Source of the DNA: Eledone cirrhosa
Taxonomy: Eukaryota
Direction: 5' to 3'
Assembly: GCA_964016885.1 (NCBI GenBank)
Contig: OZ024765.1
Span: 21,080,001 to 21,144,000 of the forward strand
Length of the DNA stretch: 64,000 nt
Below are positions 1,045 through 57,430 of this stretch, one piece after another. The position numbers and the translations under genes are program-made. Numbering within the stretch: position 1 is the stretch's first letter; every line of letters starts with the position of its first letter. The notes under the pieces were generated by a model. That model did not search any database. It was not told where the DNA came from and worked only from the letters and a program-made list of their open reading frames with translations.

Positions 1045-1590
1045 TGCACAGTAGTGGAAATTAGCTGCACAGTAGTGGAAATTAACTGCCCAGCAGCTGC
1101 CAATATAATATCAAAGATTAGTGAAAAGGAGAATATTTATGCAGAACTGATGAGAAATCTGCAGATACACCACCCTGATTACACCTTCAGATTTATGCTG
1201 TGATTATTGGGGCACTGGGGTATGTTAGTAACTGCCTCAATACAAATCTTGTGAAGCTGGGCTTCACAGGAACAGAAAGAACACAACTAGTTAGGAAACT
1301 ACAAGTACAATCCATTAATGGAACAGTAAAAATATGTAAAACATTCCAAAAATTTTGCATCTAATAACTGCATATACACATGTACAGACACAAAGCATAT
1401 ACACATGCACACATACAACTCAAAACATACACATCCACACAATAACATCCATATCTACACATGTAGGCATGCATACATATCTACCTAGTTGATGTTGTGT
1501 AAATTCCAACGGGAGAGTCTTGTGTCTATGTTAGAAACCGACTCTCTCTCTATTGGGAACAAATTTGTGAAATTATAAAACCAGAAGAAC
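1045..1590 (+). mobile_element. 5'-truncated R4/Dong-like non-LTR retrotransposon remnant (restriction-like endonuclease C-terminus plus 3' UTR)
   Basis: Manual translation: CTVVEINCPAAANIISKISEKENIYAELMRNLQ..., one frameshift, then VIIGALGYV...LQVQSINGTVKICKTFQKFCI* (stop 1362-1364). This is the EK..Y..L / IIGALG pattern of R4/Dong RLE C-termini. A 21-bp duplication lies at the 5' truncation point; both flanks are (CATA)n. Confidence 0.7.
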
Positions 1591-1623
1591 ATACATACAT
1601 ATATATACACATATATACATACA

Positions 1624-1655
<32 letters not shown>

Positions 1656-1745
1656 CACATAGAGACATATATACACACATATACACATATACATACATAT
1701 ATTTACACCAATTGATTAATTGTTCAATCGATGTTTCTTGGAATA

Positions 1746-1802
<57 letters not shown>

Positions 1803-1927
1803 TACATATATATATACACACACATACATACATATATATATATACACACACACATACATATATATATATACACACACACATACATATATATATATACACA
1901 CACATACATATATATATACACACACAT

Positions 1928-2010
<83 letters not shown>

Positions 2011-2051
2011 TATATATATATATACACGCACATATATACATATATATATAT

Positions 2052-2098
<47 letters not shown>

Positions 2099-2099
2099 G

Positions 2100-2149
<50 letters not shown>

Positions 2150-2350
2150 GTATATATACACACACACACATATATGTATGTGTGTGTGTATTTGTGTATG
2201 TCTGTATATATATATATATGTATGTGTACGTGTGTGTGTGTATATATATATATACACATGTGTATGTTTGTGTGTATATATATATGTGTATGTGTATATA
2301 TATATATATACATATATATATATGTATGTATATGTGTGTGTCTATATAGA
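1591..2350. repeat. (TA)n/(CA)n/(TG)n microsatellite
   Basis: Direct inspection. Confidence 0.95.
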
Positions 2351-2399
2351 TACAGGAAATTATTGACTGCCCAAGTTCTAATTGAAAAAGTCTGTATTT

Positions 2400-4010
2400 C
2401 ACCACCACCAGCACTACCACCACCACCAACACACCACCACCACGACCAACACCACCACACCACCAACACCACACCACACCACCACCACACCACCAACACC
2501 ACACCACCACCAACACCACACCACCACCACCACCACCACCGACACCACACCATCATGACCACCACCAACACCACACCACCACCACACCACCAACACCACA
2601 CCACCACCAACACCACACCACCACCACACCACCAACACCACACCACCACCAACACCACACCACCACCACCACCACCACCGACACCACACCATCATGACCA
2701 CCACCAACACCACACCACCACCACACCACCAACACCACACCACCACCAACACCACACCACCACCACCACCGACACCACACCACCACCACACCACCAACAC
2801 CACACCACCACCACCACCACCACCGACACCACACCACCAACACCACACCACCACCACACCACCAACACCACACCACCACCAACACCACCACACCACCACC
2901 AACACCACACCACACCACCACACCACCAACACCACACCACCACCAACACCACACCACCACCACCACCACCACCGACACCACACCATCATGACCACCACCA
3001 ACACCACACCACCACCAACACCACCACACCACCACCACCAACACCACACCACACCACACCACCAACACCACACCACCACCAACACCACACCACCACCACC
3101 ACCACCACCACCACCAACACCACACCACCACCAACACCACACCACCACCAACACCACCACACCACCACCACCAACACCACACCACACCACCACCACACCA
3201 CCAACACCACACCACCACCAACACCACACCACCACCACCACCACCACCGACACCACACCATCATGACCACCACCAACACCACACCACCAACACCACACCA
3301 CCACCAACACCACACCACCACCACCACCAACACCACACCACCACCACACCACCAACACCACACCACCACCACCACCACCACCGACACCACACCATCATGA
3401 CCACCACCAACACCACACCACCACCAACACCACCACACCACCACCACCAACACCACACCACCACCACACCACCAACACCACACCACACCACCACCAACAC
3501 CACACCACCACCACCACCACCACCGACACCACACCATCATGACCACCACACCACCAACACCACACCACCACCAACACCACCACACCACCACCACCAACAC
3601 CACACCACACCACCACACCACCAACACCACACCACCACCAACACCACCACACCACCACCACCAACACCACCGACACCACACCATCATGACCACCACCAAC
3701 ACCACACCACCACCACACCACCACCACACCACCAACACCACACCACCACCAACACCACCACACCACCACCACCAACACCACACCACCACCACACCACCAA
3801 CACCACACCACACCACCACCACACCACCAACACCACACCACCACCAACACCACACCACCACCACCACCACCACCGACACCACACCACCACCACCACCACA
3901 CCACCAACACCACACCACCACCAACACCACACCACCACCACCACCAACACCACACCACCACCAACACCACTGCCACCACCACCACCACCACCACCACCAC
4001 CACACCACAC
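2400..4010. repeat. (CAC)n-derived low-complexity minisatellite
   Basis: cac/caa/accac units with recurring cgacaccacaccatcatgac motif. Confidence 0.95.
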
Positions 4011-4017
4011 AGTTCCC

Positions 4018-4545
4018 CACCCAGAGTGACCCCTAGTGAGTGAGACAGTCCCGTATTTCACTGTCCCCTACATTGGCCCCTCTTCTCTACCTCTACCACC
4101 CAGAGTGACCCCTAGTGAGGGAGACAGTCCCGTATTTCACTCTCCCCTACATTGGCCCCTCTTCTCTACCTCTACCACCCAGAGTGACCCCTAGTGAGGG
4201 AGACAGTCCCGTATTTCACTCTCCCCTACATTGGCCCCTCTTCTCTACCTCTACCACCCAGAGTGACCCCTAGTGAGGGAGACAGTCCCGTATTTCACTC
4301 TCCCCTACATTGGCCCCTCTTCTCTACCTCTACCACCCAGAGTGACCCCTAGTGAGGGAGACAGTCCCATATTTCATTTCCCCTACATTGGCCCATCTTC
4401 TCTACCTCTACCACCCAGAGTGACCCCTAGTGAGGGAGACAGTCCCGTATTTCACTCTCCCCTACATTGGCCCATCTTCTCTACCTCTACCACCCAGAGT
4501 GACCCCTAGTGAGGGAGACAGTCCCGTATTTCACTGTCCCCTACT
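4018..4545. repeat. 79-bp tandem minisatellite, ~6.7 copies, just upstream of a splice acceptor
   Basis: ccagagtgacccctagtgagggagacagtcccgtatttcac... starts at 4021, 4100, 4179 etc. Confidence 0.95.
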
Positions 4546-4573
4546 CTGAGACCTCTTCTCTTCTGTTTTACAG

Positions 4574-4667
4574 TTCAGAAATGTGGAAAGCAGACAAACT
4601 GGCCATCACTGGGGAACTGAAGAGGAAGATGGGTATTGTGAAGAAAGCACAAGATGACGCTCATAAG
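4574..4667 (+). CDS. Internal (penultimate) coding exon of an unidentified host gene: SEMWKADKLAITGELKRKMGIVKKAQDDAHK
   Basis: Polypyrimidine tract + cag acceptor (ttctgttttacag, ends 4573), open frame, AAG|gtatca donor at 4668. Unique sequence among repeats; phase 0 matches the next exon. Confidence 0.7.
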
Positions 4668-4669
4668 GT

Positions 4670-5070
4670 ATCATCATCATCATCATCATCACCGTTTTAC
4701 GTCTGTTCTTCCATGCTAGCATGGGTTAGACGGGTTGTCCTGTTGTGGGCAGTGTCTGGTCGGCTGACCTTGTCTTGCTCATACAGGAACTGATTCTGGC
4801 TTGATTTCTACAGCTGGATGCCCTTCCTAACACCAACCTCATTTACAGTGAGTGCTGGGTGCTTCTTTGCCGTGGCACCTCCACGACCACTTTGCAGTGG
4901 AATGATAGGGACCCCAGTCCCTATCATCTCATTTCTACAGCTGAGTAAACTGGAGCAATGTGAAATAAAGTGTCTTGCTCAAGGAAACAACACATCACCC
5001 GGTCTGAGAATTGAACTCAACTTTTCGATTGCAAGCCCAACCAATGCTCTAACCACTAAGCCATGCTCCT
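4670..5070 (-). mobile_element. tRNA-derived CORE-SINE (family A) with RTE-type 3' tail and (ATG)n end
   Basis: Minus strand has A box tggcttagtgg, B box gagttcaattc and a CORE-like ccttgagcaagacact...cagtttactcagctgtagaaatgagatgata segment. Tail matches the 3' UTR of the RTE at 49154-49451. Confidence 0.85.
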
Positions 5071-5074
5071 CCAT

Positions 5075-5107
<33 letters not shown>

Positions 5108-5755
5108 AACAAATATGACCCCGACGGTAGAGCTCAAGCCATTTCGATGGCTAATTCTGGACTAAATAAGAATTTTTAGCCTGGTAAATAAATGGCCAAA
5201 CTTCTCACGGGCTAATTCCTTATATGGGAAGATAGTAATTGTCAAAAGGATTGGTCAAAAAAGCGTTGAAAGTGAAATCTATACAGCAGATTCTAAGGAT
5301 AGTGTATTGAAGGTCGAAAAAAGTGTACTGGAAAAGGGGAGATGGGGGAGAGGGGGGGGGGGTTGAAAAAATAGGTACATGGAAAGGGAGTAAACAAAAA
5401 AGCCATTATAAAAATGAGGAAGTAAATATATAAAAAAATATAAAAAAACAATTTCTGGCTACTACTCCATCCCCCCAGTCACCAAACCCCTCATTGGTAT
5501 TGCTAAACTATAGAAAAGTTTAATAGGTGGAGAGAAATACTAGATATGAGATTGTAGTGAAAGAATTTTATAAAGCCGGCTCTTCAGGGGGGGGGGGGGG
5601 GTCTAACACCACTGCTATAGTTAGTAGTAATCAGCCAATGCTATCTTACAATGACAGTTTATTAACCTGTCATTGTAAGACAGCATTGTAACGACTTCTA
5701 TATATATATAGTGACAAAACATAAGTCAATTGCATGAACTCATAATCCTTTATTT

Positions 5756-5811
5756 ACTGCTATATATATTTCGATGATAGCCATTGAATGGCTATGACCT
5801 CATCAGGCAGT
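5756..5811 (-). ncRNA. Minimal type I hammerhead ribozyme (Penelope pLTR-like)
   Basis: Reverse complement reads actgc-CTGATGA-ggtcatagcca(ttcaa)tggctatcatc-GAAA-tatata-TA/gcagt. Stem I actgc:gcagt, paired stem II, palindromic stem III, intact core. Confidence 0.8.
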
Positions 5812-5870
5812 TAATCAGTTCTTAGATATGCCAGCTCTGTGTTTATAGTGTTTATGGTATCAGAGCCTTG

Positions 5871-5913
<43 letters not shown>

Positions 5914-6171
5914 GAATAATTTAGTGAAAAATGGTGCCCAGGAACAAATTAATATCTTGAAGCAAGATTCCACTGTAACTGTCATGAAATAATTAATAGT
6001 TTTAGTAAATCTTTCAAAATTTGTCATTAATTAATTGCAATACAAGATACAAGGTTCCTATTTAAAGTAAAATCTTGCAAGATAATTACATATAAGAACC
6101 TTACATTAAGTTAATGTCTTTGTAATGAAATAATTAATAATTTTAGTAAATTTGTCACTGGTTTGTTTGTA

Positions 6172-6202
<31 letters not shown>

Positions 6203-6257
6203 TATATATACACATACACATATACACGCACATATATATACACACACACATATATAT

Positions 6258-6866
6258 CATCATCATCATCATCATCATCATTTTACGTCCGCTTTTCCCT
6301 GCTTGCAAGGGTGGGACGGGAACTGATTCTGGCTTGATTTCTACAGCTGGATGCCCTTCCTAACACCAACCTCATTTACAGTGAGTGCTGGCTGCTTTTT
6401 TGCCGTGGCATCTCCACGACCACTTTGCAGTGGGAGGGGGTGGGGGCATATTGTCTATATGCTTCAGCTTCGGCTTGTACCCGTGGGGGAGGGGGGGTCT
6501 TCTGTATTACTGCGTGACGCCAGAGGTGACGGTTGTGTGTCATCGCCTTTGAGCGGTACAACTGGGTAAGGTCGGCTTTTATCACCTCATCCCAGGTCTT
6601 CTTGGGTCTCCCCACTCCACATCACATGTCCAAACCAACACAACCGCCTCTCCTGCACTTAGCATTTGATTCCTCTTATGCTCAGTCTCTCTCTCAATTC
6701 GTTTATACTTTGCCGTTCACGTATATTACTATTACATATCCATCTGAGCATGCAGGCTTCGTTTCTTTCTAATCTACGCAAGTCTTCCACAGACAGCGCA
6801 CAGGTCTCACTACCATGTAACATTGTTGTTCGTATGCACGCATCATACAGTCTGCCTTTCATTTTG
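6258..6866 (-). mobile_element. 5'-truncated RTE LINE fragment (short-tail variant)
   Basis: Encodes KMKGRLYDACIRTTMLHGSETCAL... and [15 protein letters not shown]..., nearly identical to the RTE at 47771-49153; ends in (ATG)n. Confidence 0.9.
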
Positions 6867-6954
6867 ATATATCTATATATATGTGTGTATATATATATAT
6901 ATATATACACACATATATATATATACACACACACACATACACATATATATATAT

Positions 6955-6985
<31 letters not shown>

Positions 6986-7014
6986 CACACACACACATAC
7001 ACATATATATATAT

Positions 7015-7045
<31 letters not shown>

Positions 7046-7088
7046 CACACACACACATACACACATATATATATACACACACACACAC

Positions 7089-7137
<49 letters not shown>

Positions 7138-7319
7138 ATTGCAATACAAGATACACGGTTACTATTTAAACTAAAATCTTCCAACCTAATTATATATAAG
7201 AACCATGTATAATAATTTTAGTAAATCTCGCAAAATTCTTTGTCAATTAATTGCAACAAATGTCATTGTTTGGAAATACTTTAAAAGAGATGTCATTTTT
7301 ATCTGTGGTTTTGTTTCAG

Positions 7320-7418
7320 GCATTCACCATCTGTAAAGTACACCTCGAGCACCTCATTGAAAGAGAAGAAACTTTGAACAAGAGATTTTCTCAAATAAAT
7401 TACAAATACCGAACGTAA
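7320..7418 (+). CDS. Terminal coding exon of the same host gene: AFTICKVHLEHLIEREETLNKRFSQINYKYRT*
   Basis: ttttgtttcag acceptor (ends 7319), phase 0 open frame to TAA 7416-7418, AATAAA at 7422-7427. Confidence 0.7.
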   Translation, partial: AFTICKVHLEHLIEREETLNKRFSQINYKYRT

Positions 7419-7514
7419 TACAATAAATACAATAATTGGAATGCAGTCTTTTGTCTGTGTGAGACACACAAACAGTAGGCTCTATCATATATATATATAT
7501 ATATCACAATATTT

Positions 7515-7552
<38 letters not shown>

Positions 7553-7723
7553 ACATACATATATATATATATGTATATATGTATGTATATGGATGAACTG
7601 GATCCAATCATCAGCCAAAACACACGTAACAGGGCAATAGACAATAAAAATCTATATACATGTAAACGAAACTTCATCGTATTTTATATATATGTGTGTG
7701 TGTGTGTGAGTGTATGTATACAT

Positions 7724-8222
7724 ATAATAATAATGAAATTATTGTGTACAGTGCTCAGGTGCACTACAACTCATCAAAGGTGCATGTATAGTACATAGAA
7801 TAATGTACAAATGTCAGGAAAATGAACAGTGTATGAGTCATGATATAATAATAATAATAATAATAATGAAATTATTGTGTACAGTGCTCAGGTGCACTAC
7901 AACTCATCAAAGGTGCATGTATAGTACATAGAATAATGAACAAATGTCAGGAAAATGAACAGTGTATGAGTCATGATATAATAATAATAATAATAATGAA
8001 ATTATTGTGTACAGTGCTCAGGTGCACTACAACTCATCAAAGGTGCATGTATAGTACATAGAATAATGTACAAATGTCAGGAAAATGAACAGTGTATGAG
8101 TCATGATATAATAATAATAATAATAATGAAATATTGTGAACAGTGCCCAGGTGCACCACAACTCATCAAAAAAGTGCATGTACAGTACATAGGGCAATGC
8201 ACAAACATCAGTAAAATGTATA
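7724..8222 (-). repeat. ~130-bp tandem repeat (~3.8 copies) resembling a retroposon 3' end with (ATT)n tail
   Basis: Unit ataataatgaaattattgtgtacagtgctcaggtgcactacaactc...; on the minus strand each unit ends caataatttcattattatt. Confidence 0.75.
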
Positions 8223-8726
8223 TGTGTATGCTTATATACATCATTATCATCGTTTAATGTCCATCTTCCATGCTAGCATACATGTGTGTGTATGTGTATA
8301 CATGTATATGTCTTTATGTATATATCTATGTGTGTGTATGTGTGTGTGTGTGTGTGCATATATATATATTTATGTGTGTGTGTGTGTATACAACTGTATA
8401 TATGTATATATGTGTGTGTGCATGTATATGTGTGTGTGCATACATATCTATATATATATATATGTGCATGCGTGTATACATGTGTATGTATGTATGTATA
8501 TATGTATGTATATATGTATATATATGTCTGTATGTATATGTATATATCTATATAGATATACATATATATATATTTCATCATCATCATCATCATTTCATTT
8601 TACGTCCGCTTATATATACACTCCCATATATATATATATATACACACACATATATATATATATATACACACACATACACATATATATACACACATATATA
8701 TATATTCATACACATATATATATATG

Positions 8727-8760
<34 letters not shown>

Positions 8761-8771
8761 CACACACATAC

Positions 8772-8820
<49 letters not shown>

Positions 8821-8837
8821 CACGCACACACACACAC

Positions 8838-8870
<33 letters not shown>

Positions 8871-9141
8871 TATATATATACACACACATATATACACACA
8901 CACACACACAGGTATGTATTGATATCTTTTATCTCATAGCTTTAAGGTGAGTTATTAATGTTCTGAAGTAACAACAACAACAATACACAGTACATTATAA
9001 TGGATTGTTGTTGTTGTTGTTGTTACTGTTGTTGTTGTTTTTACTGTTGTTGTTACTGTTGTTGTTGTTGTTGATTCTGTTTGTCTCCATTCTTATGGGA
9101 TATCACACAACCACATATGTGCATATATATATATCATCATC

Positions 9142-9181
<40 letters not shown>

Positions 9182-9248
9182 ATGCATATATATGCATGTA
9201 TATATCTATATCTATATATATTTATATATAGATATTTGTGTGTGTGTG

Positions 9249-9309
<61 letters not shown>

Positions 9310-9372
9310 ATGCATATATATGCATGTATATATCTATATATATATTTATATATAGATATTTGTGTGTGTGTG

Positions 9373-9414
<42 letters not shown>

Positions 9415-9422
<8 letters not shown>

Positions 9423-9528
9423 ATATATAAGAACAAAAGATGGTTAAAAGAGTTCCATGTATTTTATTATGCGCATTAAAATACATGGAACTCTTTTAAC
9501 CATCTTTTGATCTTATATATTATGTATA
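9415..9528. repeat. Fold-back palindrome centred on tgcgca (hammerhead stem III of the 9867-9935 family)
   Basis: aagaacaaaagatggttaaaagagttccatgtatttta / taaaatacatggaactcttttaaccatcttttgatctt. Confidence 0.9.
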
Positions 9529-9607
9529 CTCCAGTCCTACAAACTGTAGAGTGCTTCTTATCCGATATCTGCATTGCTTTATTGTACTACAATAAAACTT
9601 ACCTCCT

Positions 9608-9635
<28 letters not shown>

Positions 9636-9638
<3 letters not shown>

Positions 9639-9820
9639 TGTTTCTACTTTTGGCACAAGGCCAGCAATTACCCAGTACATTACTGGTACTTTATTTTATC
9701 GACCCTGTAAGGATGAAAGGCAAAGTTAACCTCGGCGGGATTTGAACTCAGTAAAGGGACGTAACTGTGCTGCAAAGCATGGCGTCTGACCCTCTATCCA
9801 TACTGCCAATCCACCGCCTT
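9636..9820 (-). mobile_element. tRNA-derived SINE family B (full length)
   Basis: Head ggcggtggattggcagt, B box gagttcaaatcc, conserved tttgcctttcatcc..ggtcgataaaataaagtaccag body, aaacaatt tail; at least 6 copies in the window. Confidence 0.85.
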
Positions 9821-9866
9821 ATATATATATAATGTAAGATCAAAAGATGGTAAAAGAGTTCCAACT

Positions 9867-9935
9867 ATTTTATTATGCGCATTTCAAAAACAAATATCAT
9901 CATAGTATGATATCTGCGTTCTCACCAGATAAAAT
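9867..9935 (-). ncRNA. Minimal hammerhead ribozyme with one core substitution (CTGGTGA)
   Basis: Reverse complement reads attttat-CTGGTGA-gaacgcagatatcat(actatg)atgatatttgttttt-GAAA-tgcgca-TA/ataaaat. 7-bp stem I, palindromic stem III. Confidence 0.7.
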
Positions 9936-10013
9936 AGGGAGACATGATATGAAGCTTGTGAGCAGTGAAGTTTTAAATCAACGTATTGTGCTACAATAAA
10001 ACTCACCTCCTAC

Positions 10014-10080
<67 letters not shown>

Positions 10081-10160
10081 ATATATATATGTCTCTGTAT
10101 ATATATATATAAATATACAATATATTAACAAATGGAAACTATATTTATAAAACCATATTT

Positions 10161-10224
10161 ATTTTATTATACATATTTCAAGGGCCACCAAGGTAAATTA
10201 TGGTGCGCTTTCATCAGATAAAAT
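10161..10224 (-). ncRNA. Minimal hammerhead ribozyme (left arm of palindrome)
   Basis: Reverse complement reads attttat-CTGATGA-aagcgcacc...ggtggccctt-GAAA-tatgta-TA/ataaaat. Confidence 0.75.
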
Positions 10225-10362
10225 ACAGATTTGTTTTATAAATAAATATTGACATACCTGGAAAAAAGACAACCTTAACAGTTGGAGCTATCTAGGAAGC
10301 TCCAACCGTTAAGGTTGTCTTTTTTCCGGGTATGTCAATATTTATTTATAAAACAAATCTGT

Positions 10363-10426
10363 ATTTTATCTGATGAAAGCACACCATAATTTGCCTTGGT
10401 GGCCCTTGAAATATGTATAATAAAAT
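10363..10426 (+). ncRNA. Minimal hammerhead ribozyme (right arm of palindrome)
   Basis: attttat-CTGATGA(10370-76)-aagcacacc...ggtggccctt-GAAA(10408-11)-tatgta-TA/ataaaat; predicted cleavage after 10419. Confidence 0.75.
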
Positions 10427-10648
10427 AAATATGGTTTTATAAATATAGTTTCCATTTGTCAATATATTGTATATTTACTCCACTATACTGTTGAGTGCTT
10501 TATATCAGTTATAACATTTTTTAAGCTTGTTGAATCCCAACAAATTAAATATAACCTCTGCATATATATATATATACAAATAAAGATTCAGCGAGAATCG
10601 CATTTTCGGCGGGCAGGAAAAGCAAAGCGAAACGCATATATATATATT

Positions 10649-11456: not shown

Positions 11457-11567
11457 TTATATATACACACACACACACATATACAAAAGTTCAATTTAAA
11501 TTGTTGGGATACAACAAGCAAATATTATTATAACTGATATAAAGCACTCGACAAATATTTGGAGTAG

Positions 11568-11732
11568 ATATACAGTATTAATAAATGGAAACTATATTTA
11601 TAAAACCATATTTATTTCATTATATATATTTCAAGGATACCCTGAAGGCATACCATGATTTAACTTGGTGTCCTTGAAATATATATAATGAAATAAATAT
11701 GGTTTTATAAATATAGTTTCCATTTATTAATA

Positions 11733-11740
<8 letters not shown>
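11568..11740. repeat. Fold-back palindrome of the same pLTR-like family as 10110-10477 (core degraded)
   Basis: Arms ...aaatggaaactatatttataaaaccatatttatttcattatatatatttcaagga / tccttgaaatatatataatgaaataaatatgg... Confidence 0.85.
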
Positions 11741-11785
<45 letters not shown>

Positions 11786-11939
11786 TTAGGAATAACGAAA
11801 GAGTGCTTAGAAATACATTGTCATACCAAGGGCAATATATCTGCATGTCTGGGCACATTGATATACTTGTCAACGAAACTATATATATATATGTTTTTGT
11901 TTTGCGAGGTTTTTGATATGAAATCGTGTGTCGAAACAA

Positions 11940-12340
11940 ATATTGTTATACTTGGGGAGGGTCATATTGTCATATTGTCATATTGCCAGAAATAATAATA
12001 CACTCACTGTTTGGTTGGTTTTCACTTCTGTATCTTTATTCTCGGAGAATAAAAATGGCGTAGACATACAATACAACAGGAGGAACATAATAGTACCACT
12101 GATGATGTTACAGATGTGCAACGAAAGAACTTTGTTAGACTATATATATGTGTTTATATCTGTATTATATCTGTATTTTTGACCGTTGGTCAGTCAATGG
12201 TAAACATTGGGGACCGAATGAATTAACTGTGGAGATATAAAAGATACAGAAGCGAAAACCAACCAAACAGTGAGTGTGTTCTGTTGTTATTTCTGGCAAT
12301 ATTATTACAACAATATGACCCTCCCCAAGTATAACAATAT
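11940..12340. repeat. Inverted repeat, ~100-bp arms around a ~200-bp spacer containing a hammerhead-like CTGATGA...GAAA relic
   Basis: atattgttatacttggggagggtcatattgt...ctgtatcttt vs aaagatacag...atatgaccctccccaagtataacaatat. Confidence 0.75.
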
Positions 12341-14438: not shown

Positions 14439-14626
14439 AGACGGTGGATTGGCAGTATCGGTAGAGGGTCGGACGCCATGCTTTCCAGCATAGTTACGTC
14501 CCTTTACGGACTGAGTTCAAATCCCGCCGAGGTTGACTTTGCCTTTCATCCTTACGGGGTCGATGAAATAAAGTACCAGTAATGCACTGGGTAATTGCTG
14601 GCCTTGTGCCTAAAGTAGAAACAATT
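14439..14626 (+). mobile_element. SINE family B with ~15-bp target-site duplication
   Basis: Same head, B box and body as 9636-9820; attattgaggttaga at 14427-14441 and 14624-14638. Confidence 0.9.
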
Positions 14627-17600
14627 ATTGAGGTTAGATGGTGTGCCTGGTGAGGGTACTTGCTGGTTCCAGTGTCTTAGCCTCTCCATCACCTTACATT
14701 AATGAGGTTAGATGGTGTGCCTGGTGAGGGTACTTGGTGGTTCCAGTGTCTTAGCCTCTCCATCACCTTACATTAATGAGGTTAGATGGTGTGCCTGGTG
14801 AGGGTACTTGCTGGTTCCACTGTCTTAGCCTCTCCATCACCCCACATTAATGAGGTTAGATGGTGTGCCTGGTGAGGGTACTTGGTGGTTCCACTGTCTT
14901 AGCCTCTCCATCACCTCACATTAATGAGGTTAGATGGTGTGCCTGGTGAGGGTACTTGCTGGTTCCACTGTCTTAGCCTCTCCATCACCCCACATTAATG
15001 AGGTTAGATGGTGTGCCTGGTGAGGGTACTTGGTGGTTCCACTGTCTTAGCCTCTCCATCACCCCACATTAATGAGGTTAGATGGTGTGCCTGGTGAGGG
15101 TACTTGCTGGTTCCACTGTCTTAGCCTCTCCATCACCCCACATTAATGAGGTTAGATGGTGTGCCTGGTGAGGGTACTTGCTGGTTCCACTGTCTTAGCC
15201 TCTCCATCACCTCACATTAATGAGGTTAGATGGTGTGCCTGGTGAGGGTACTTGCTGGTTCCACTGTCTTAGCCTCTCCATCACCCCACATTAATGAGGT
15301 TAGATGGTGTGCCTGGTGAGGGTACTTGGTGGTTCCACTGTCTTAGCCTCTCCATCACCCCACATTAATGAGGTTAGATGGTGTGCCTGGTGAGGGTACT
15401 TGCTGGTTCCACTGTCTTAGCCTCTCCATCACCCCACATTAATGAGGTTAGATGGTGTGCCTGGTGAGGGTACTTGCTGGTTCCACTGTCTTAGCCTCTC
15501 CATCACCTCACATTAATGAGGTTAGATGGTGTGCCTGGTGAGGGTACTTGCTGGTTCCACTGTCTTAGCCTCTCCATCACCCCACATTAATGAGGTTAGA
15601 TGGTGTGCCTGGTGAGGGTACTTGCTGGTTCCACTGTCTTAGCCTCTCCATCACCTCACATTAATGAGGTTAGATGGTGTGCCTGGTGAGGGTACTTGCT
15701 GGTTCCACTGTCTTAGCCTCTCCATCACCCCACATTAATGAGGTTAGATGGTGTGCCTGGTGAGGGTACTTGGTGGTTCCACTGTCTTAGCCTCTCCATC
15801 ACCCCACATTAATGAGGTTAGATGGTGTGCCTGGTGAGGGTACTTGGTGGTTCCACTGTCTTAGCCTCTCCATCACCCCACATTAATGAGGTTAGATGGT
15901 GTGCCTGGTGAGGGTACTTGGTGGTTCCACTGCCTTAGCCTATCCATCACCTCACATTAATGAGGTTAGATGGTGTGCCTGGTGAGGGTACTTGCTGGTT
16001 CCACTGTCTTAGCCTCTCCATCACCTCACATTAATGAGGTTAGATGGTGTGCCTGGTGAGGGTACTTGCTGGTTCCACTGTCTTAGCCTCTCCATCACCT
16101 CACATTAATGAGGTTAGATGGTGTGCCTGGTGAGGGTACTTGGTGGTTCCAGTGTCTTAGCCTCTCCATCACCTTACATTAATGAGGTTAGATGGTGTGC
16201 CTGGTGAGGGTACTTGGTGGTTCCAGTGTCTTAGCCTCTCCATCACCTTACATTAATGAGGTTAGATGGTGTGCCTGGTGAGGGTACTTGGTGGTTCCAG
16301 TGTCTTAGCCTCTCCATCACCTCACATTAATGAGGTTAGATGGTGTGCCTGGTGAGGGTACTTGGTGGTTCCAGTGTCTTAGCCTCTCCATCACCTTACA
16401 TTAATGAGGTTAGATGGTGTGCCTGGTGAGGGTACTTGGTGGTTCCAGTGTCTTAGCCTCTCCATCACCTTACATTAATGAGGTTAGATGGTGTGCCTGG
16501 TGAGGGTACTTGCTGGTTCCACTGTCTTAGCCTCTCCATCACCTCACATTAATGAGGTTAGATGGTGTGCCTGGTGAGGGTACTTGGTGGTTCCAGTGTC
16601 TTAGCCTCTCCATCACCTTACATTAATGAGGTTAGATGGTGTGCCTGGTGAGGGTACTTGGTGGTTCCAGTGTCTTAGCCTCTCCATCACCTCACATTAA
16701 TGAGGTTAGATGGTGTGCCTGGTGAGGGTACTTGGTGGTTCCAGTGTCTTAGCCTCTCCATCACCTTACATTAATGAGGTTAGATGGTGTGCCTGGTGAG
16801 GGTACTTGGTGGTTCCAGTGTCTTAGCCTCTCCATCACCTCACATTAATGAGGTTAGATGGTGTGCCTGGTGAGGGTACTTGCTGGTTCCACTGTCTTAG
16901 CCTCTCCATCACCTCACATTAATGAGGTTAGATGGTGTGCCTGGTGAGGGTACTTGGTGGTTCCAGTGTCTTAGCCTCTCCATCACCTTACATTAATGAG
17001 GTTAGATGGTGTGCCTGGTGAGGGTACTTGGTGGTTCCAGTGTCTTAGCCTCTCCATCACCTTACATTAATGAGGTTAGATGGTGTGCCTGGTGAGGGTA
17101 CTTGCTGGTTCCACTGTCTTAGCCTCTCCATCACCTCACATTAATGAGGTTAGATGGTGTGCCTGGTGAGGGTACTTGCTGGTTCCACTGTCTTAGCCTC
17201 TCCATCACCTCACATTAATGAGGTTAGATGGTGTGCCTGGTGAGGGTACTTGGTGGTTCCAGTGTCTTAGCCTCTCCATCACCTTACATTAATGAGGTTA
17301 GATGGTGTGCCTGGTGAGGGTACTTGCTGGTTCCAGTGTCTTAGCCTCTCCATCACCTCACATTAATGAGGTTAGATGGTGTGCCTGGTGAGGGTACTTG
17401 CTGGTTCCACTGTCTTAGCCTCTCCATCACCTCACATTATTGAGGTTAGATGGTGTGCCTGGTGAGGGTACTTGGTGGTTCCACTGTCTTAGCCTCTCCA
17501 TCACCTCACATTAATGAGGTTAGATGGTGAGCCTGGTGAGGGTACTTGCTGGTTCCACTGTCTTAGCCTCTCCATCACCTTACATTAATGAGGTTAGATG

Positions 17601-20600
17601 GTGTGCCTGGTGAGGGTACTTGGTGGTTCCAGTGTCTTAGCCTCTCCATCACCTCACATTAATGAGGTTAGATGGTGTGCCTGGTGAGGGTACTTGCTGG
17701 TTCCACTGTCTTAGCCTCTCCATCACCTCACATTAATGAGGTTAGATGGTGTGCCTGGTGAGGGTACTTGGTGGTTCCAGTGTCTTAGCCTCTCCATCAC
17801 CTTACATTAATGAGGTTAGATGGTGTGCCTGGTGAGGGTACTTGGTGGTTCCAGTGTCTTAGCCTCTCCATCACCTTACATTAATGAGGTTAGATGGTGT
17901 GCCTGGTGAGGGTACTTGCTGGTTCCACTGTCTTAGCCTCTCCATCACCTCACATTAATGAGGTTAGATGGTGTGCCTGGTGAGGGTACTTGCTGGTTCC
18001 ACTGTCTTAGCCTCTCCATCACCTCACATTAATGAGGTTAGATGGTGTGCCTGGTGAGGGTACTTGGTGGTTCCAGTGTCTTAGCCTCTCCATCACCTTA
18101 CATTAATGAGGTTAGATGGTGTGCCTGGTGAGGGTACTTGCTGGTTCCAGTGTCTTAGCCTCTCCATCACCTCACATTAATGAGGTTAGATGGTGTGCCT
18201 GGTGAGGGTACTTGCTGGTTCCACTGTCTTAGCCTCTCCATCACCTCACATTATTGAGGTTAGATGGTGTGCCTGGTGAGGGTACTTGGTGGTTCCACTG
18301 TCTTAGCCTCTCCATCACCTCACATTATTGAGGTTAGATGGTGTGCCTGGTGAGGGTACTTGCTGGTTCCACTGTCTTAGCCTCTCCATCACCTCACATT
18401 ATTGAGGTTAGATGGTGTGCCTGGTGAGGGTACTTGGTGGTTCCAGTGTCTTAGCCTCTCCATCACCTCACATTAATGAGGTTAGATGGTGTGCCTGGTG
18501 AGGGTACTTGCTGGTTCCACTGTCTTAGCCTCTCCATCACCTCACATTATTGAGGTTAGATGGTGTGCCTGGTGAGGGTACTTGGTGGTTCCACTGTCTT
18601 AGCCTCTCCATCACCTCACATTATTGAGGTTAGATGGTGTGCCTGGTGAGGGTAGTTGGTGGTTCCACTGTCTTAGCCTCTCCATCACCTCACATTAATG
18701 AGGTTAGATGGTGTGCCTGGTGAGGGTACTTGCTGGTTCCACTGTCTTAGCCTCTCCATCACCTCACATTAATGAGGTTAGATGGTGTGCCTGGTGAGGG
18801 TACTTGGTGGTTCCACTGTCTTAGCCTCTCCATCACCTCACATTAATGAGGTTAGATGGTGTGCCTGGTGAGGGTACTTGCTGGTTCCACTGTCTTAGCC
18901 TCTCCATCACCTCACATTAATGAGGTTAGATGGTGTGCCTGGTGAGGGTACTTGGTGGTTCCACTGTCTTAGCCTCTCCATCACCTCACATTAATGAGGT
19001 TAGATGATGTGCCTGGTGAGGGTACTTGGTGGTTCCACTGTCTTAGCCTCTCCATCACCTCACATTATTGAGGTTAGATGGTGTGCCTGGTGAGGGTACT
19101 TGGTGGTTCCACTGTCTTAGCCTCTCCATCACCTCACATTATTGAGGTTAGATGGTGTGCCTGGTGAGGGTACTTGGTGGTTCCACTGTCTTAGCCTCTC
19201 CATCACCTCACATTATTGAGGTTAGATGGTGTGCCTGGTGAGGGTACTTGGTGGTTCCACTGTCTTAGCCTCTCCATCACCTCACATTAATGAGGTTAGA
19301 TGGTGTGCCTGGTGAGGGTACTTGCTGGTTCCACTGTCTTAGCCTCTCCATCACCTCACATTAATGAGGTTAGATGGTGTGCCTGGTGAGGGTACTTGGT
19401 GGTTCCACTGTCTTAGCCTCTCCATCACCTCACATTAATGAGGTTAGATGGTGTGCCTGGTGAGGGTACTTGCTGGTTCCACTGTCTTAGCCTCTCCATC
19501 ACCTCACATTAATGAGGTTAGATGGTGTGCCTGGTGAGGGTACTTGGTGGTTCCACTGTCTTAGCCTCTCCATCACCTCACATTAATGAGGTTAGATGAT
19601 GTGCCTGGTGAGGGTACTTGGTGGTTCCACTGTCTTAGCCTCTCCATCACCTCACATTATTGAGGTTAGATGGTGTGCCTGGTGAGGGTACTTGGTGGTT
19701 CCACTGTCTTAGCCTCTCCATCACCTCACATTATTGAGGTTAGATGGTGTGCCTGGTGAGGGTACTTGGTGGTTCCACTGTCTTAGCCTCTCCATCACCT
19801 CACATTATTGAGGTTAGATGGTGTGCCTGGTGAGGGTACTTGGTGGTTCCACTGTCTTAGCCTCTCCATCACCTCACATTAATGAGGTTAGATGGTGTGC
19901 CTGGTGAGGGTACTTGGTGGTTCCACTGTCTTAGCCTCTCCATCACCTCACATTAATGAGGTTAGATGATGTGCCTGGTGAGGGTACTTGGTGGTTCCAG
20001 TGTCTTAGCCTCTCCATCACCTCACATTAATGAGGTTAGATGGTGTGCCTGGTGAGGGTACTTGCTGGTTCCACTGTCTTAGCCTCTCCATCACCTCACA
20101 TTAATGAGGTTAGATGATGTGCCTGGTGAGGGTACTTGGTGGTTCCAGTGTCTTAGCCTCTCCATCACCTCACATTAATGAGGTTAGATGATGTTCCTGG
20201 TGAGGGTACTTGCTGGTTCCAGTGTCTTAGCCTCTCCATCACCTCACATTAATGAGGTTAGATGGTGTGCCTGGTGAGGGTACTTGGTGGTTCCACTGTC
20301 TTAGCCTCTCCATCACCTCACATTATTGAGGTTAGATGGTGTGCCTGGTGAGGGTACTTGGTGGTTCCACTGTCTTAGCCTCTCCATCACCTCACATTAT
20401 TGAGGTTAGATGGTGTGCCTGGTGAGGGTACTTGGTGGTTCCACTGTCTTAGCCTCTCCATCACCTCACATTAATGAGGTTAGATGGTGTGCCTGGTGAG
20501 GGTACTTGGTGGTTCCACTGTCTTAGCCTCTCCATCACCTCACATTAATGAGGTTAGATGGTGTGCCTGGTGAGGGTACTTGGTGGTTCCACTGTCTTAG

Positions 20601-23600
20601 CCTCTCCATCACCTCACATTATTGAGGTTAGATGGTGTGCCTGGTGAGGGTACTTGGTGGTTCCACTGTCTTAGCCTCTCCATCACCTCACATTAATGAG
20701 GTTAGATGGTGTGCCTGGTGAGGGTACTTGGTGGTTCCAGTGTCTTAGACTCTCCATCACCTCACATTAATGAGGTTAGATGGTGTGCCTGGTGAGGGTA
20801 CTTGCTGGTTCCAGTGTCTTAGACTCTCCATCACCTCACATTAATGAGGTTAGATGGTGTGCCTGGTGAGGGTACTTGCTGGTTCCACTGTCTTAGCCTC
20901 TCCATCACCTCACATTAATGAGGTTAGATGGTGTGCCTGGTGAGGGTACTTGCTGGTTCCACTGTCTTAGCCTCTCCATCACCTCACATTATTGAGGTTA
21001 GATGGTGTGCCTGGTGAGGGTACTTGCTGGTTCCACTGTCTTAGCCTCTCCATCACCTTACATTAATGAGGTTAGATGGTGTGCCTGGTGAGGGTACTTG
21101 GTGGTTCCACTGTCTTAGCCTCTCCATCACCTCACATTATTGAGGTTAGATGGTGTGCCTGGTGAGGGTACTTGCTGGTTCCACTGTCTTAGCCTCTCCA
21201 TCACCTCACATTATTGAGGTTAGATGGTGTGCCTGGTGAGGGTACTTGCTGGTTCCACTGTCTTAGCCTCTCCATCACCTCACATTAATGAGGTTAGATG
21301 GTGTGCCTGGTGAGGGTACTTGCTGGTTCCACTGTCTTAGACTCTCCATCACCTCACATTAATGAGGTTAGATGGTGTGCCTGGTGAGGGTACTTGGTGG
21401 TTCCACTGTCTTAGCCTCTCCATCACCTCACATTAATGAGGTTAGATGGTGTGCCTGGTGAGGGTACTTGGTGGTTCCAGTGTCTTAGCCTCTCCATCAC
21501 CTCACATTATTGAGGTTAGATGGTGTGCCTGGTGAGGGTACTTGCTGGTTCCACTGTCTTAGCCTCTCCATCACCTCACATTAATGAGGTTAGATGGTGT
21601 GCCTGGTGAGGGTACTTGCTGATTCCACTGTCTTAGACTCTCCATCACCTCACATTAATGAGGTTAGATGGTGTGCCTGGTGAGGGTACTTGCTGGTTCC
21701 ACTGTCTTAGCCTCTCCATCACCTCACATTAATGAGGTTAGATGGTGTGCCTGGTGAGGGTACTTGGTGGTTCCACTGTCTTAGCCTCTCCATCACCTCA
21801 CATTAATGAGGTTAGATGGTGTGCCTGGTGAGGGTACTTGGTGGTTCCAGTGTCTTAGCCTCTCCATCACCTCACATTATTGAGGTTAGATGGTGTGCCT
21901 GGTGAGGGTACTTGCTGGTTCCACTGTCTTAGCCTCTCCATCACCTCACATTAATGAGGTTAGATGGTGTGCCTGGTGAGGGTACTTGCTGGTTCCACTG
22001 TCTTAGACTCTCCATCACCTCACATTAATGAGGTTAGATGGTGTGCCTGGTGAGGGTACTTGGTGGTTCCACTGTCTTAGCCTCTCCATCACCTCACATT
22101 AATGAGGTTAGATGGTGTGCCTGGTGAGGGTACTTGCTGGTTCCACTGTCTTAGACTCTCCATCACCTCACATTAATGAGGTTAGATGGTGTGCCTGGTG
22201 AGGGTACTTGCTGGTTCCACTGTCTTAGCCTCTCCATCACCTCACATTAATGAGGTTAGATGGTGTGCCTGGTGAGGGTACTTGCTGGTTCCACTGTCTT
22301 AGACTCTCCATCACCTCACATTAATGAGGTTAGATGGTGTGCCTGGTGAGGGTACTTGCTGGTTCCACTGTCTTAGCCTCTCCATCACCTCACATTAATG
22401 AGGTTAGATGGTGTGCCTGGTGAGGGTACTTGCTGGTTCCACTGTCTTAGACTCTCCATCACCTCACATTAATGAGGTTAGATGGTGTGCCTGGTGAGGG
22501 TACTTGCTGGTTCCACTGTCTTAGCCTCTCCATCACCTCACATTAATGAGGTTAGATGGTGTGCCTGGTGAGGGTACTTGGTGGTTCCACTGTCTTAGCC
22601 TCTCCATCACCTCACATTAATGAGGTTAGATGGTGTGCCTGGTGAGGGTACTTGCTGGTTCCACTGTCTTAGACTCTCCATCACCTCACATTAATGAGGT
22701 TAGATGGTGTGCCTGGTGAGGGTACTTGCTGGTTCCACTGTCTTAGCCTCTCCATCACCTCACATTAATGAGGTTAGATGGTGTGCCTGGTGAGGGTACT
22801 TGCTGGTTCCACTGTCTTAGCCTCTCCATCACCTCACATTAATGAGGTTAGATGGTGTGCCTGGTGAGGGTACTTGCTGGTTCCACTGTCTTAGACTCTC
22901 CATCACCTCACATTAATGAGGTTAGATGGTGTGCCTGGTGAGGGTACTTGGTGGTTCCACTGTCTTAGCCTCTCCATCACCTCACATTAATGAGGTTAGA
23001 TGGTGTGCCTGGTGAGGGTACTTGCTGGTTCCACTGTCTTAGACTCTCCATCACCTCACATTAATGAGGTTAGATGGTGTGCCTGGTGAGGGTACTTGCT
23101 GGTTCCACTGTCTTAGACTCTCCATCACCTCACATTAATGAGGTTAGATGGTGTGCCTGGTGAGGGTACTTGGTGGTTCCACTGTCTTAGCCTCTCCATC
23201 ACCTCACATTAATGAGGTTAGATGGTGTGCCTGGTGAGGGTACTTGCTGGTTCCACTGTCTTAGACTCTTCATCACCTCACATTAATGAGGTTAGATGGT
23301 GTGCCTGGTGAGGGTACTTGCTGGTTCCACTGTCTTAGCCTCTCCATCACCTCACATTAATGAGGTTAGATGGTGTGCCTGGTGAGGGTACTTGCTGGTT
23401 CCACTGTCTTAGCCTCTCCATCACCTCACATTAATGAGGTTAGATGGTGTGCCTGGTGAGGGTACTTGCTGGTTCCACTGTCTTAGACTCTCCATCACCT
23501 CACATTAATGAGGTTAGATGGTGTGCCTGGTGAGGGTACTTGCTGGTTCCACTGTCTTAGACTCTCCATCACCTCACATTAATGAGGTTAGATGGTGTGC

Positions 23601-31858: not shown

Positions 31859-31969
31859 ATAGGAACAAGTATGACCCCGACGGCAGAGCTCAAGCCGTTT
31901 CGACGGCTAATTCAAAATTAGCCGTCGAAACGGCTTGAGCTCTGCCGTCGGGGTCATACTTGTTCCTAT
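31859..31969. repeat. Perfect fold-back palindrome; unfolded relative at ~5103-5220
   Basis: ataggaacaagtatgaccccgacggcagagctcaagccgtttcgacggctaatt / aattagccgtcgaaacggcttgagctctgccgtcggggtcatacttgttcctat. Confidence 0.9.
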
Positions 31970-47551: not shown

Positions 47552-47770
47552 GGAAGGTATATATATATATATATATAGTTAAAACTGGGATGGGAACAAA
47601 CAGAGAGGCAGTACAAACAAAGGTTTATTAGTTTCATTCTCTTGAGAGTGGGGGGTGGGTGGAGAACGACGTTTCGGGCATATATATACACATCATCATC
47701 ATCATCATCGTTTTACGTCCGTTCTTCCATAATAGCATGGGTTAGATGGGTTGTCCTATTGTGGGCAGTT

Positions 47771-57395: not shown

Positions 57396-57430
<35 letters not shown>

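Follow-up and report, generated by a model that had tools for sequence, protein, structure and literature searches.

The window analysed here is a stretch of 64,000 nt from Eledone cirrhosa (contig OZ024765.1 of assembly GCA_964016885.1, positions 21,080,001 to 21,144,000). It contains ends of Penelope-like elements (PLEs) from families A to D, some of which carry a hammerhead ribozyme motif. The features are listed by window position.

5711..5874, minus strand: family A stump, a 164-nt 3' end (pseudo-LTR) of a PLE of Hydra type (by motif); no tail; between TA tracts
5756..5811, minus strand: hammerhead A, with its core at 5806-5800 and the octamer ATATATAT as stem III; cleavage predicted after 5761; folding z -2.5
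9421..9611, no strand assigned: fold-back insertion of family B; holds only sequence 3' of stem II, which is inverted about the palindrome of stem III (9469-9476); tail on the plus arm
9834..9982, minus strand: family B stump without tail; its 5' junction falls on the hot spot of the family
9867..9935, minus strand: hammerhead B, core CTGGTGA (9928-9922); stem III octamer ATGCGCAT; cleavage position 9874
9984..10015, plus strand: inverted fragment of the family B tail, fused to the 5' end of the stump (blastn to the tail of copy L275)
10113..10288, minus strand: left arm of family C, no tail; contains hammerhead C- (10161-10224; predicted cleavage after 10168)
10289..10563, plus strand: right arm of family C; contains hammerhead C+ (10363-10426; predicted cleavage after 10419); tail at about 10474-10563
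11495..11737, no strand assigned: head-to-head fold-back of a family C relative; tail on the minus arm
11896..12340, plus strand: Neptune-like end (family D), 79-88% identical to copy L222

Hammerheads A, C- (both minus strand) and C+ (plus strand) have the full layout of stem I, CTGATGA, stem II, GAAA, palindrome, TA and stem I'. The intact core (CUGANGA...GAAA...UH) and helices I and II are present in all three; window copy B fails. A stem-aware scan of the window returned these three as strict matches and none in each of 100 block-wise dinucleotide shuffles, so that the motifs exceed the shuffled background. A preliminary description, made from the sequence letters, had reported four complete motifs. 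This holds for A, C- and C+. Motif B is not complete because core position 6 is mutated (CTGGTGA); CTGATGA is found in 27 of 30 positional copies of the family. Judged from this core, hammerhead B is likely inactive in the window copy. The description was right about minimal type I hammerheads with a palindromic stem III, about their Penelope-like origin and about 10419, after the TA, as the predicted cleavage position of C+. A loose core pattern gave 11 matches in the window, against 1.68 expected; those at 4617, 30004, 35455, 40820, 54410, 56149 and 57890 were rejected by the stem-aware scan. In an Rfam scan with 254 matches, the best 150 did not include a hammerhead and were dominated by miRNA models matching microsatellites. 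An inverted-repeat search of the window was dominated by TA/CA tracts.

The window motifs represent three insertions, not four distinct elements as had been proposed. The C- and C+ arms are identical in 173 of 182 aligned columns and form one palindromic insertion (about 10113-10563), in which an extra 90-nt tail is found on the plus arm only. According to the alignment, the ORF of a full-length copy, L258, has this tail (about 10474-10563) as its 5' UTR. The family A stump (5711-5874) has its 5' junction at the family hot spot; a different repeat family lies next to it (5106-5698). The fold-back at 11495-11737 is devoid of a complete core because its junction sits within the hammerhead. The family D end consists of an inverted tail (11896-12029), followed by a pseudo-LTR (12048-12340) with a hammerhead core (12099-12126) and a weak stem I. 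This Neptune-like end had been overlooked, as had the two fold-backs (family B, 9421-9611, and the C relative, about 11495-11737). Every window copy adjoins (TA)n tracts. As already described, the window has no Penelope RT or GIY-YIG ORF: tblastn found no Penelope-like RT or endonuclease domain in it, the sole match being a 28-aa N-terminal piece of a Neptune-like ORF.

The genome has 106,746 matches to the hammerhead motif, compared to 47 in the control; about 107,000 motifs in 3.0 Gb correspond to one per 28 kb. An exact 22-mer of family A has 2,801 matches, the two family B motifs have 968 and 7,234 exact matches, and those of family C have 9,009 and 43,818 (control: 0 in each case). All 40 scored family A matches are 98-100% identical. 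Family sequence is abundant in all three public runs examined (contigs of unrecorded kind).

Across 11 family representatives, the core, the stems and the stem III palindromes are conserved with covariation: 89.9% of cells are paired, versus 30-48% when slid. The stem III octamers ATATATAT, ATGCGCAT, ATATGTAT and ATGATCAT are four different sequences, all self-complementary; stem III is self-complementary at 28 of 30 positional sites, with only the outer two pairs fixed by the search pattern itself. The first pair of stem II (363 sites) is A-U in 210, G-U in 69 and G-C in 55 cases. The G10.1-C11.1 pair is therefore not conserved (55/363); it is present in A and absent in B and C. At pair 4 of stem II, a C·C or C·U mismatch occurs in 348 of 363 sites, and the adjacent pairs covary. 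The family C motifs fold no better than shuffled sequences (z -0.2 and -0.6; -2.5 for A). The motifs are predicted to cut RNA as pairs (dimers).

In other genomic copies, the ends of families A, B and C sit 1.0-1.6 kb downstream of an RT-endonuclease ORF. The linked PLE ORFs that had been suggested as a search target exist for all three families. The term "non-autonomous" cannot be upheld: all three families run upstream into this ORF and, in A and B, short copies are interspersed with long ones. The parent has a pseudo-LTR with the hammerhead, the tail (5' UTR), one ORF (in the order RT, CxCX5C linker, endonuclease), a 3' UTR of 1.0-1.5 kb and a second pseudo-LTR. In the full-length family C copy L258, a hammerhead (at 945) is followed by a 743-aa ORF (1182-3410), and a second family end lies about 1.5 kb past the endonuclease C-terminus, so that the ORF is enclosed by two family ends. 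Seventeen stretches around family C endonuclease matches were chosen from 150 matches by long frames or rank; in 12, a family C end follows on the same strand, 1.33-1.56 kb downstream, and five have no downstream family end. Family B has ORF-linked ends in L276 (599-aa ORF, 1.35 kb upstream of the end) and L196, and its tail continues into the ORF start in L318 and L322. Family A is ORF-linked in L418, L419 and L421, with the endonuclease ORF 1.1-1.2 kb upstream in the first two. No fully intact Hydra-type ORF was seen among the copies examined; in the L258 ORF, the catalytic motif of the RT is altered and the linker has a short deletion, and those of families A and B are partial or contain frameshifts. 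Same-strand C/B matches a few kb apart (L216-L218, L275) and a 4-kb tandem (L262/L263) were considered as tandem full-length elements and rejected.

On the basis of motifs, the parents of A, B and C are assigned to the Hydra clade of PLEs. The motifs RW[R/I], DKT, CxCX5C, CxxC..E and CxH are present, following the definition of the clade (PMC8557442, section 11). An RWK-type motif and DKT (replacing DKG) are found in L258 (family C; RLRWRA, SDKTN) and L424 (B-type ORF start; RLRWIA, SDKTN), a comparison that covers families B and C. The CxCX5C linker, as well as CxxC and CxH flanking conserved E and N, occur in L258 and L265 (C), L276 (B), and L418 and L419 (A). The ORFs examined lack CCHH, as no pair of cysteines lies between their two tyrosine motifs. 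In 95 homologues, the endonuclease residues Y614, Y627-x-G629, R638, H642, E697 and N709 are invariant. The ORF's C-terminus is considered an endonuclease based on these motifs and the published alignment. The predicted structure (pLDDT 89) resembles RTs including TERT (E 4e-8 to 1e-7); no GIY-YIG structure is among the fold matches listed. Pfam did not recognize RT or GIY-YIG domains in the three family ORFs and gave a single weak RVT_1 match, below the cut-off, for 11 further proteins. A search of solved structures by sequence with the Hydra-type alignment gave 0 matches. Neptune parentage of A to C was rejected since the CX2-5CxxC linker and the DKG-type motif are absent from their ORFs; that linker is present in family D (L222), to which family C has only a weak endonuclease match (E 0.005). 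Naiad parentage was also rejected.

Of 90 copies, 85 extend at least 41 nt beyond the cleavage site (values are lower bounds only, and TA tracts in the references inflate the long ones). Because these ends lie at least 40 bases past the cleavage site, the ribozyme does not define the insertion ends, and "ribozyme-processed", as the copies had been called, is not borne out. From the cleavage site, copies continue for about 40-55 or 130-145 bases in the 3' direction and then adjoin (TA)n. The proposed preference for (TA)n is confirmed, with (TA)4 or longer at 173 of 186 family ends (C 76/82, B 73/78, A 24/26). At the 5' side, copies are often broken off 67-90 bases upstream of the core; the 5' hot spot is used in 12 of 30 A, 30 of 80 B and 12 of 34 C copies and is the palindrome CATATG in A and B. 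Among the first 100 matches, neighbours within 5 kb are more often head-to-head than tail-to-tail (C 17 versus 3, B 16 versus 0). The tail is on exactly one arm in 36 of 38 C pairs and 15 of 22 B pairs, and on both arms in none of the 60. The arms are mutually closest in 21 of 32 C pairs and in only one of 14 B pairs. Palindrome junctions differ between copies.

We consider it very probable that the motifs belong to the pseudo-LTRs at the 3' ends of three Hydra-type families that code for protein, and that the copies in the window are stumps in (TA)n, either truncated at the 5' end or head-to-head, likely made by the enzyme of the parents copying uncut RNA. If they behave as PAc, a Poseidon element, does in vitro (PMC11167929), the endonuclease would nick (TA)n, and the RT would start internally at one of two sites, giving ends with and without tail. 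It would copy across the intact hammerhead. Palindromes may result from two cDNAs of the same source or from one cDNA folding back. The hammerhead would cleave only as a dimer, via the 8-nt stem III palindrome and perhaps with protein help, at an RNA-processing step that leaves insertion ends unset. The stumps are likely dead on arrival. Several observations count against this explanation: the lack of a fully intact Hydra-type ORF among the copies examined, the weak clustering of short C copies, the five of 17 endonuclease stretches without a downstream end, the Pfam results for the three ORFs, the missing GIY-YIG structure among the fold matches listed, the single mutually closest pair among 14 in family B, and the folding of the C motifs. 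The sharp 5' hot spots would also suit short copies transcribed from their own promoter.

It is improbable that some short copies propagate as SINE-like or solo retrozyme-like non-autonomous elements, with a promoter in the pseudo-LTR, transcription beginning 67-90 nt upstream of the hammerhead, and mobilization in trans by the Hydra enzyme. The hot spots are similarly placed in three divergent families, retrozymes derive from pLTRs (bioRxiv 10.64898/2026.07.22.740005) and non-autonomous Chlamys elements exist. However, CATATG in A and B could favour junctions by microhomology alone, and junctions of the palindromes vary. In alignments, short copies of A and B are not separate lineages: the nearest neighbour of a short copy is also short at 0.48, versus an expected 0.55 (A) and 0.50 (B). 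No variable column survives correction for the number of columns tested (smallest p 0.18 of 9, 0.017 of 24 and 0.017 of 44). Short family C copies are somewhat nearer each other (0.62 versus 0.47), in a sample that mixes subfamilies unevenly; this weak clustering favours self-propagation. By analogy, PAc requires ORF sequence 3' of the start sites, which the stumps do not have. Retrozyme arrays were rejected: most neighbours either lie head to head or belong to different families, and across all fetched loci only two places have two same-strand motifs less than 600 nt apart that come from one family or from close relatives, with no longer array.

A different template, a circle made by cleavage and religation (Cervera and de la Pena 2014), with insertions crossing the resealed cleavage site, is unlikely though worth keeping in mind; it departs from the preferred explanation in the template alone. 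It would fit the conserved, covarying core, stems and palindromes of the 11 representatives, and copies that hold both sides of the cleavage site and have 5' UTR behind 3' UTR. A linear pLTR-ORF-pLTR transcript, however, yields identical products; in vitro, PAc insertion is normal when the hammerhead is mutated, and none of the RNA-seq reads had an end at the PAc cleavage site. That the palindromes are MITE-like DNA elements or assembly artefacts, and the hammerheads chance in AT-rich DNA, has next to no probability. MITEs have long inverted arms and TA flanks, which the palindromes resemble, and the folding of family C is no better than that of shuffles. But the two arms are not the same, with differences at several positions and in the tail, and the arms extend kilobases into RT-EN ORFs, the family sequence is abundant in the public runs, and neither the 100 shuffles nor the genome control approach the observed counts. 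ORF linkage and covariation refute this reading.

Beyond the preferred explanation of truncated Hydra-type ends, it is tempting to speculate, quite tentatively, that a hammerhead subtype exists. The invariant stem II mismatch might replace the usual loop-loop contact, acting as a tertiary or protein-binding switch by which the RT-endonuclease triggers cleavage of a dimer held together by the loopless palindromic stem III; the genome might be among the densest hammerhead loads on record, from a Hydra-type burst. If true, the dozen covarying families would make the role of Penelope hammerheads directly testable. Tens of thousands of short non-coding repeats are reassigned to Hydra-type parents unrecognised by Pfam, and a "small" clade can be one of the main classes of repeat in an animal genome. 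Of Naiads, it is said in PMC8557442 (Craig et al.) that abundant 3' ends of PLEs are frequently labelled "unknown" by automated pipelines. The natural covariation series, with its unexplained invariant mismatch, is useful for asking why ribozymes persist, being kept although seemingly dispensable for insertion in vitro. The rule of a tail on one arm (0/60 pairs with two) sharply constrains how head-to-head insertions form.

Hammerheads in truncated, inverted Penelope-like ends and a Hydra clade with (TA)n preference are already in print. Hydra elements, a clade of C-terminal EN+ PLEs, are known from Craig et al. 2021 (PMC8557442) to contain hammerheads and to target (TA)n. As far as the Hydra sections of that paper go, the families here share with the clade, including Hydra-1_Obim and Repbase Penelope-13_HM, one ORF of about 740 aa for RT and EN (RWK-like, DKT, CxCX5C, CxxC and CxH motifs; no CCHH), a hammerhead near the 3' end, (TA)n targets, a tail at one end only and a 5'-truncated inverted copy at the 5' end, the last noted for Penelope-13_HM. 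The families here are new: compared by eye, ORF start and hammerhead are both unlike Hydra-1_Obim. In those sections, Hydra elements are generally <3 kb (a tendency) with tails of 30-40 nt, whereas units here are about 4 kb with a 1.0-1.5 kb 3' UTR (L258 exceeds 3 kb because of its 1.4-kb 3' UTR) and tails of about 90 nt. Stem III is a loopless 8-nt palindrome, in contrast to 3-4 bp with a 1-3 nt loop in the Hydra motifs presented there, which also differ in the fixed C·Y mismatch. Copies here number tens of thousands; few Hydra families, and no comparable counts, are given in those sections.

As in the metazoan PLE hammerheads treated in the pertinent parts of PMC4209133 (Cervera and de la Pena 2014), there are many consensus families per genome, and motifs are mostly single, tied to truncated PLEs, with opposite-strand pairs 100-700 bp apart, a long helix II, a palindromic helix III and a dimer model. 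Counts differ (about 107,000 in 3.0 Gb versus about 2,000-9,000), and here it is the 1x1 C·Y mismatch at pair 4 that is conserved, not G10.1-C11.1. Non-LTR retrozymes (PMC7229834; bioRxiv 10.64898/2026.07.22.740005) likewise have type I hammerheads in short, non-coding, PLE-related units and very high counts (126,247 in axolotl). They are, however, arranged head to tail in tandem arrays, have canonical hammerheads and lack an ORF, whereas the families here are dispersed, head-to-head and ORF-linked; retrozymes have no protein-coding parent of the same family, and A, B and C do. PAc (Frangieh et al. 2024, PMC11167929) shares 3' ends with and without tail downstream of the hammerhead, AT-rich targets and ends away from the cleavage site. 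It belongs to a different clade, its start codon is inside the hammerhead and its tail is ORF sequence (here 5' UTR), and its priming needs no homology, whereas here both ends fall at AT-dinucleotide runs. The scale (106,746 matches versus 47 in the control) and the C·C/C·U mismatch in stem II go beyond the findings in print that we encountered.

Three Hydra-type Penelope-like families with hammerhead-bearing ends (A, B and C) and a Neptune-like family (D) are represented between 5.7 and 12.3 kb of the window:

5756-5811, minus strand: hammerhead of family A, passes the stem-aware scan
9421-9611: fold-back of family B, inverted about the palindrome of stem III
9867-9935, minus strand: hammerhead of family B, stems and palindrome kept, core CTGGTGA
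10161-10224, minus strand: hammerhead on the left arm of a family C insertion (C-), passes the scan
10363-10426, plus strand: hammerhead on the right arm of the same insertion (C+), passes the scan
about 11495-11737: fold-back of a family C relative
11896-12340: Neptune-like end, with a hammerhead motif at 12099

The preliminary description counted four complete motifs in several distinct elements. A, C- and C+ pass the stem-aware scan, which gave no match in 100 shuffles. The fourth, B, has a mutated core; CTGATGA is present in 27 of 30 positional family B copies. C- and C+ are the two arms of a single palindrome, with a tail (an extra 3' stretch) of ~90 nt on the plus arm. There are thus three insertions rather than four, and the three intact motifs come from two of them. 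The two fold-backs and the Neptune-like end are three further pieces of the same kind.

A total of 363 hammerhead sites were gathered without requiring stem I or stem II; they include 13 clusters with at least two sites. Stem II pairs 1-3 and 5-7 are formed in 324-355 of these sites. Pair 4 is formed in three; 231 sites have C·C there and 117 have C·U. In a structure alignment of 11 hand-picked representatives (10 families and the window B copy), 89.9% of cells are paired, compared to 30-48% in slid controls, and two-sided changes occur at 13 of 18 pairs. Pair 4 is unpaired in all 11, and its C is invariant. Because the families have common ancestry, inheritance could account for the mismatch, but the neighbouring pairs have switched among A-U, U-A, G-C and C-G between families. 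The octamer that forms stem III has no loop and comes in four self-complementary versions, which is relevant only when two molecules pair. The computed energy is -2 to -10 kcal/mol for the homoduplexes and positive for the hairpin. The stem II mismatch recurs in further families (L019:2730-2807 and many degenerate-pattern matches), with stem III ATGATCAT and others. Types without an 8-nt stem III also occur in the fetched loci (e.g., families with stem III ACTAGT and ACCACTGGT), and at least one such type is linked to a second Neptune-like family (L088).

The genome assembly has 3.0 Gb, and TA tracts are abundant. Exact motifs matched 2,801 times for family A, 968 and 7,234 times for B, and 9,009 and 43,818 times for C (the larger B and C counts take in related subfamilies), with no match for any reversed control. 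A degenerate pattern of the common architecture gave 106,746 matches versus 47 for the control, one per 28 kb, and counts this subtype only, since pair 4 was fixed in it as C and Y. Among the 30 loci listed for this pattern, stem II pairs 2, 3, 5, 6 and 7 are formed in 29-30, pair 1 in 20, stem I pairs 1-4 in 28-29, and a palindromic stem III in 28.

The motif at 12099 has its source in family D, which is separate and very young. It has 37,557 first-look candidates in the genome and occurs as 4.1-kb tandem copies; all 150 of the 150 scored endonuclease copies are identical to the query. One copy (L222, C1:307340000-307349900) has a 1,217-aa ORF with an asparagine-rich insert; the reading frame enters from the upstream pLTR (the pseudo-LTR end holding the hammerhead). 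This family was likely recently active.

At L087, no more than 1.5 kb separates a copy of family A from a 412-aa frame, which we take to be protocadherin-like from its cadherin-repeat look.

Families A, B and C had been considered non-autonomous. When copies were traced upstream, however, all three led to ORFs, bearing motifs given for the Hydra clade in PMC8557442. For family C, two loci (L219, L220) contain, between TA tracts, an inverted short arm, a truncated ORF (RT thumb and endonuclease), a UTR of ~1.5 kb and a hammerhead. A third (L258) has a full-length layout (hammerhead, tail, 743-aa ORF, 1.4-kb UTR, second end); its RT motif, linker and second hammerhead carry lesions. The tail of the window copy matches the 5' UTR of L258 (93.7% over 238 nt). 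In 12 of 17 stretches around endonuclease hits, selected from 150 hits, a C end in the same orientation follows after 1.33-1.56 kb. For family B, L276 codes for a 599-aa ORF (46% identical to C), L196 is a further copy with an upstream ORF, and the tail leads into the ORF start in L318 and L322. For family A, L418 and L419 contain frameshifted or partial ORFs that terminate 1.1-1.2 kb upstream of the family end, and L421 holds RT pieces. A database search gave 370 homologues of these ORFs; of the 120 listed, almost all are unnamed. A Pfam search missed their domains; by structure model comparison, the predicted fold resembles RTs, including TERT.

A preference for (TA)n is confirmed: (TA)4 or longer adjoins the 3' end at 76/82 (C), 73/78 (B) and 24/26 (A) sites. 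These ends fall into two classes, with a tail (C 27/82, B 31/78) or without. The proposed ribozyme processing is not reflected in the insertion ends. Among 90 upstream-anchored copies, 85 run at least 41 nt beyond the cleavage site; the other five end at -7 to +13, and in at least two of these, other repeats follow that start in the TA-like stem III. About five of the 160 copies anchored 3' of the site start near it (read by eye from 36 rows without a full hammerhead), so there is no clear pile-up on that side either. In L143, L154 and L156, other TA-targeting repeats have apparently inserted later into the TA-like stem III of the hammerhead, splitting it.

The 5' junctions cluster 69-73 nt (A, 12/30), 67-73 nt (B, 30/80) and 75-90 nt (C, 12/34) upstream of the core; an upstream stretch of at least 300 nt is kept in 12 A, 27 B and 4 C copies. 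Among the first 100 hits, head-to-head neighbours outnumber tail-to-tail ones (C 17 vs 3, B 16 vs 0). Exactly one arm carries a tail in 36/38 C and 15/22 B pairs, and never both; this set includes loci chosen as palindromes. Arms are mutually best or tied-best matches in 21/32 C pairs and 1/14 B pairs. In A and B, short copies do not cluster separately from the long copies; family C has a weak excess, confounded by sampling.

Other repeats and frames occur in the window:

5106-5698: different high-copy repeat family (82-95% identity; 5,749 first-look candidates for a joint query), hairpin within it at 5626-5700, inverted pairing of several copies in other parts of the genome
5106-5170 and 31770-31968: TA-flanked repeat that forms a perfect hairpin of 77 nt at 31876-31952
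14624-27800: 13-kb tandem array, 74-bp unit, 178 copies, 97% matches
36889-39063, plus strand: LINE RT frame, 725 aa (RVT_1, zf-RVT), presumably L1/Tx1-like
47579-49150, plus strand: frame coding for an RT domain followed by a PHD finger, presumably RTE-like
near 54400-58500: 1,740-bp triplication
61136-63388, minus strand: LINE RT frame, 751 aa (RVT_1), presumably L1/Tx1-like

Further tandem arrays have units of 79, 130, 72 and 48 bp. The TA-flanked repeat adjoins many fetched loci and resembles a further fold-back product.

What was observed of the mechanism is the layout, the ends, the targets and the pairing. By analogy with the Poseidon element PAc, the (TA)n target would be nicked, RT would initiate internally at two sites on an uncut RNA template, copying would halt early, and a second, inverted cDNA would become joined. 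According to PMC11167929, the PAc tail is bounded by two internal start sites, hammerhead mutants insert normally, and cleavage requires protein. The 5' hot spot may reflect either transcription initiation or microhomology. Head-to-head copies carry their two hammerheads on opposite strands, which precludes dimerisation within one transcript; in a full-length RNA, the other pLTR would supply the dimer partner.

The window motifs are real and explained, and are additional members of an already-known kind. It is the scale and the fixed mismatch that give the finding its interest. In our literature search, with figures and most subscription papers beyond its reach, no paper dealt with the stem II mismatch or with cephalopod counts of this order. 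Retrozymes are treated in PMC7229834 and bioRxiv 10.64898/2026.07.22.740005. PMC13282606 counts Penelope-like elements in an octopus, with neither Hydra nor hammerheads named in the passages covered. Head-to-head palindromes are described in PMC3846280. PMC8557442 defines the Hydra clade (hammerheads, (TA)n targets, inverted truncated copies, one-sided tails); its one octopus Hydra family is distinct from A, B and C in a by-eye comparison. Many families of single minimal hammerheads linked to truncated Penelope-like elements, and hammerhead pairs on opposite strands 100-700 bp apart, are already known from PMC4209133 and are like those found here.
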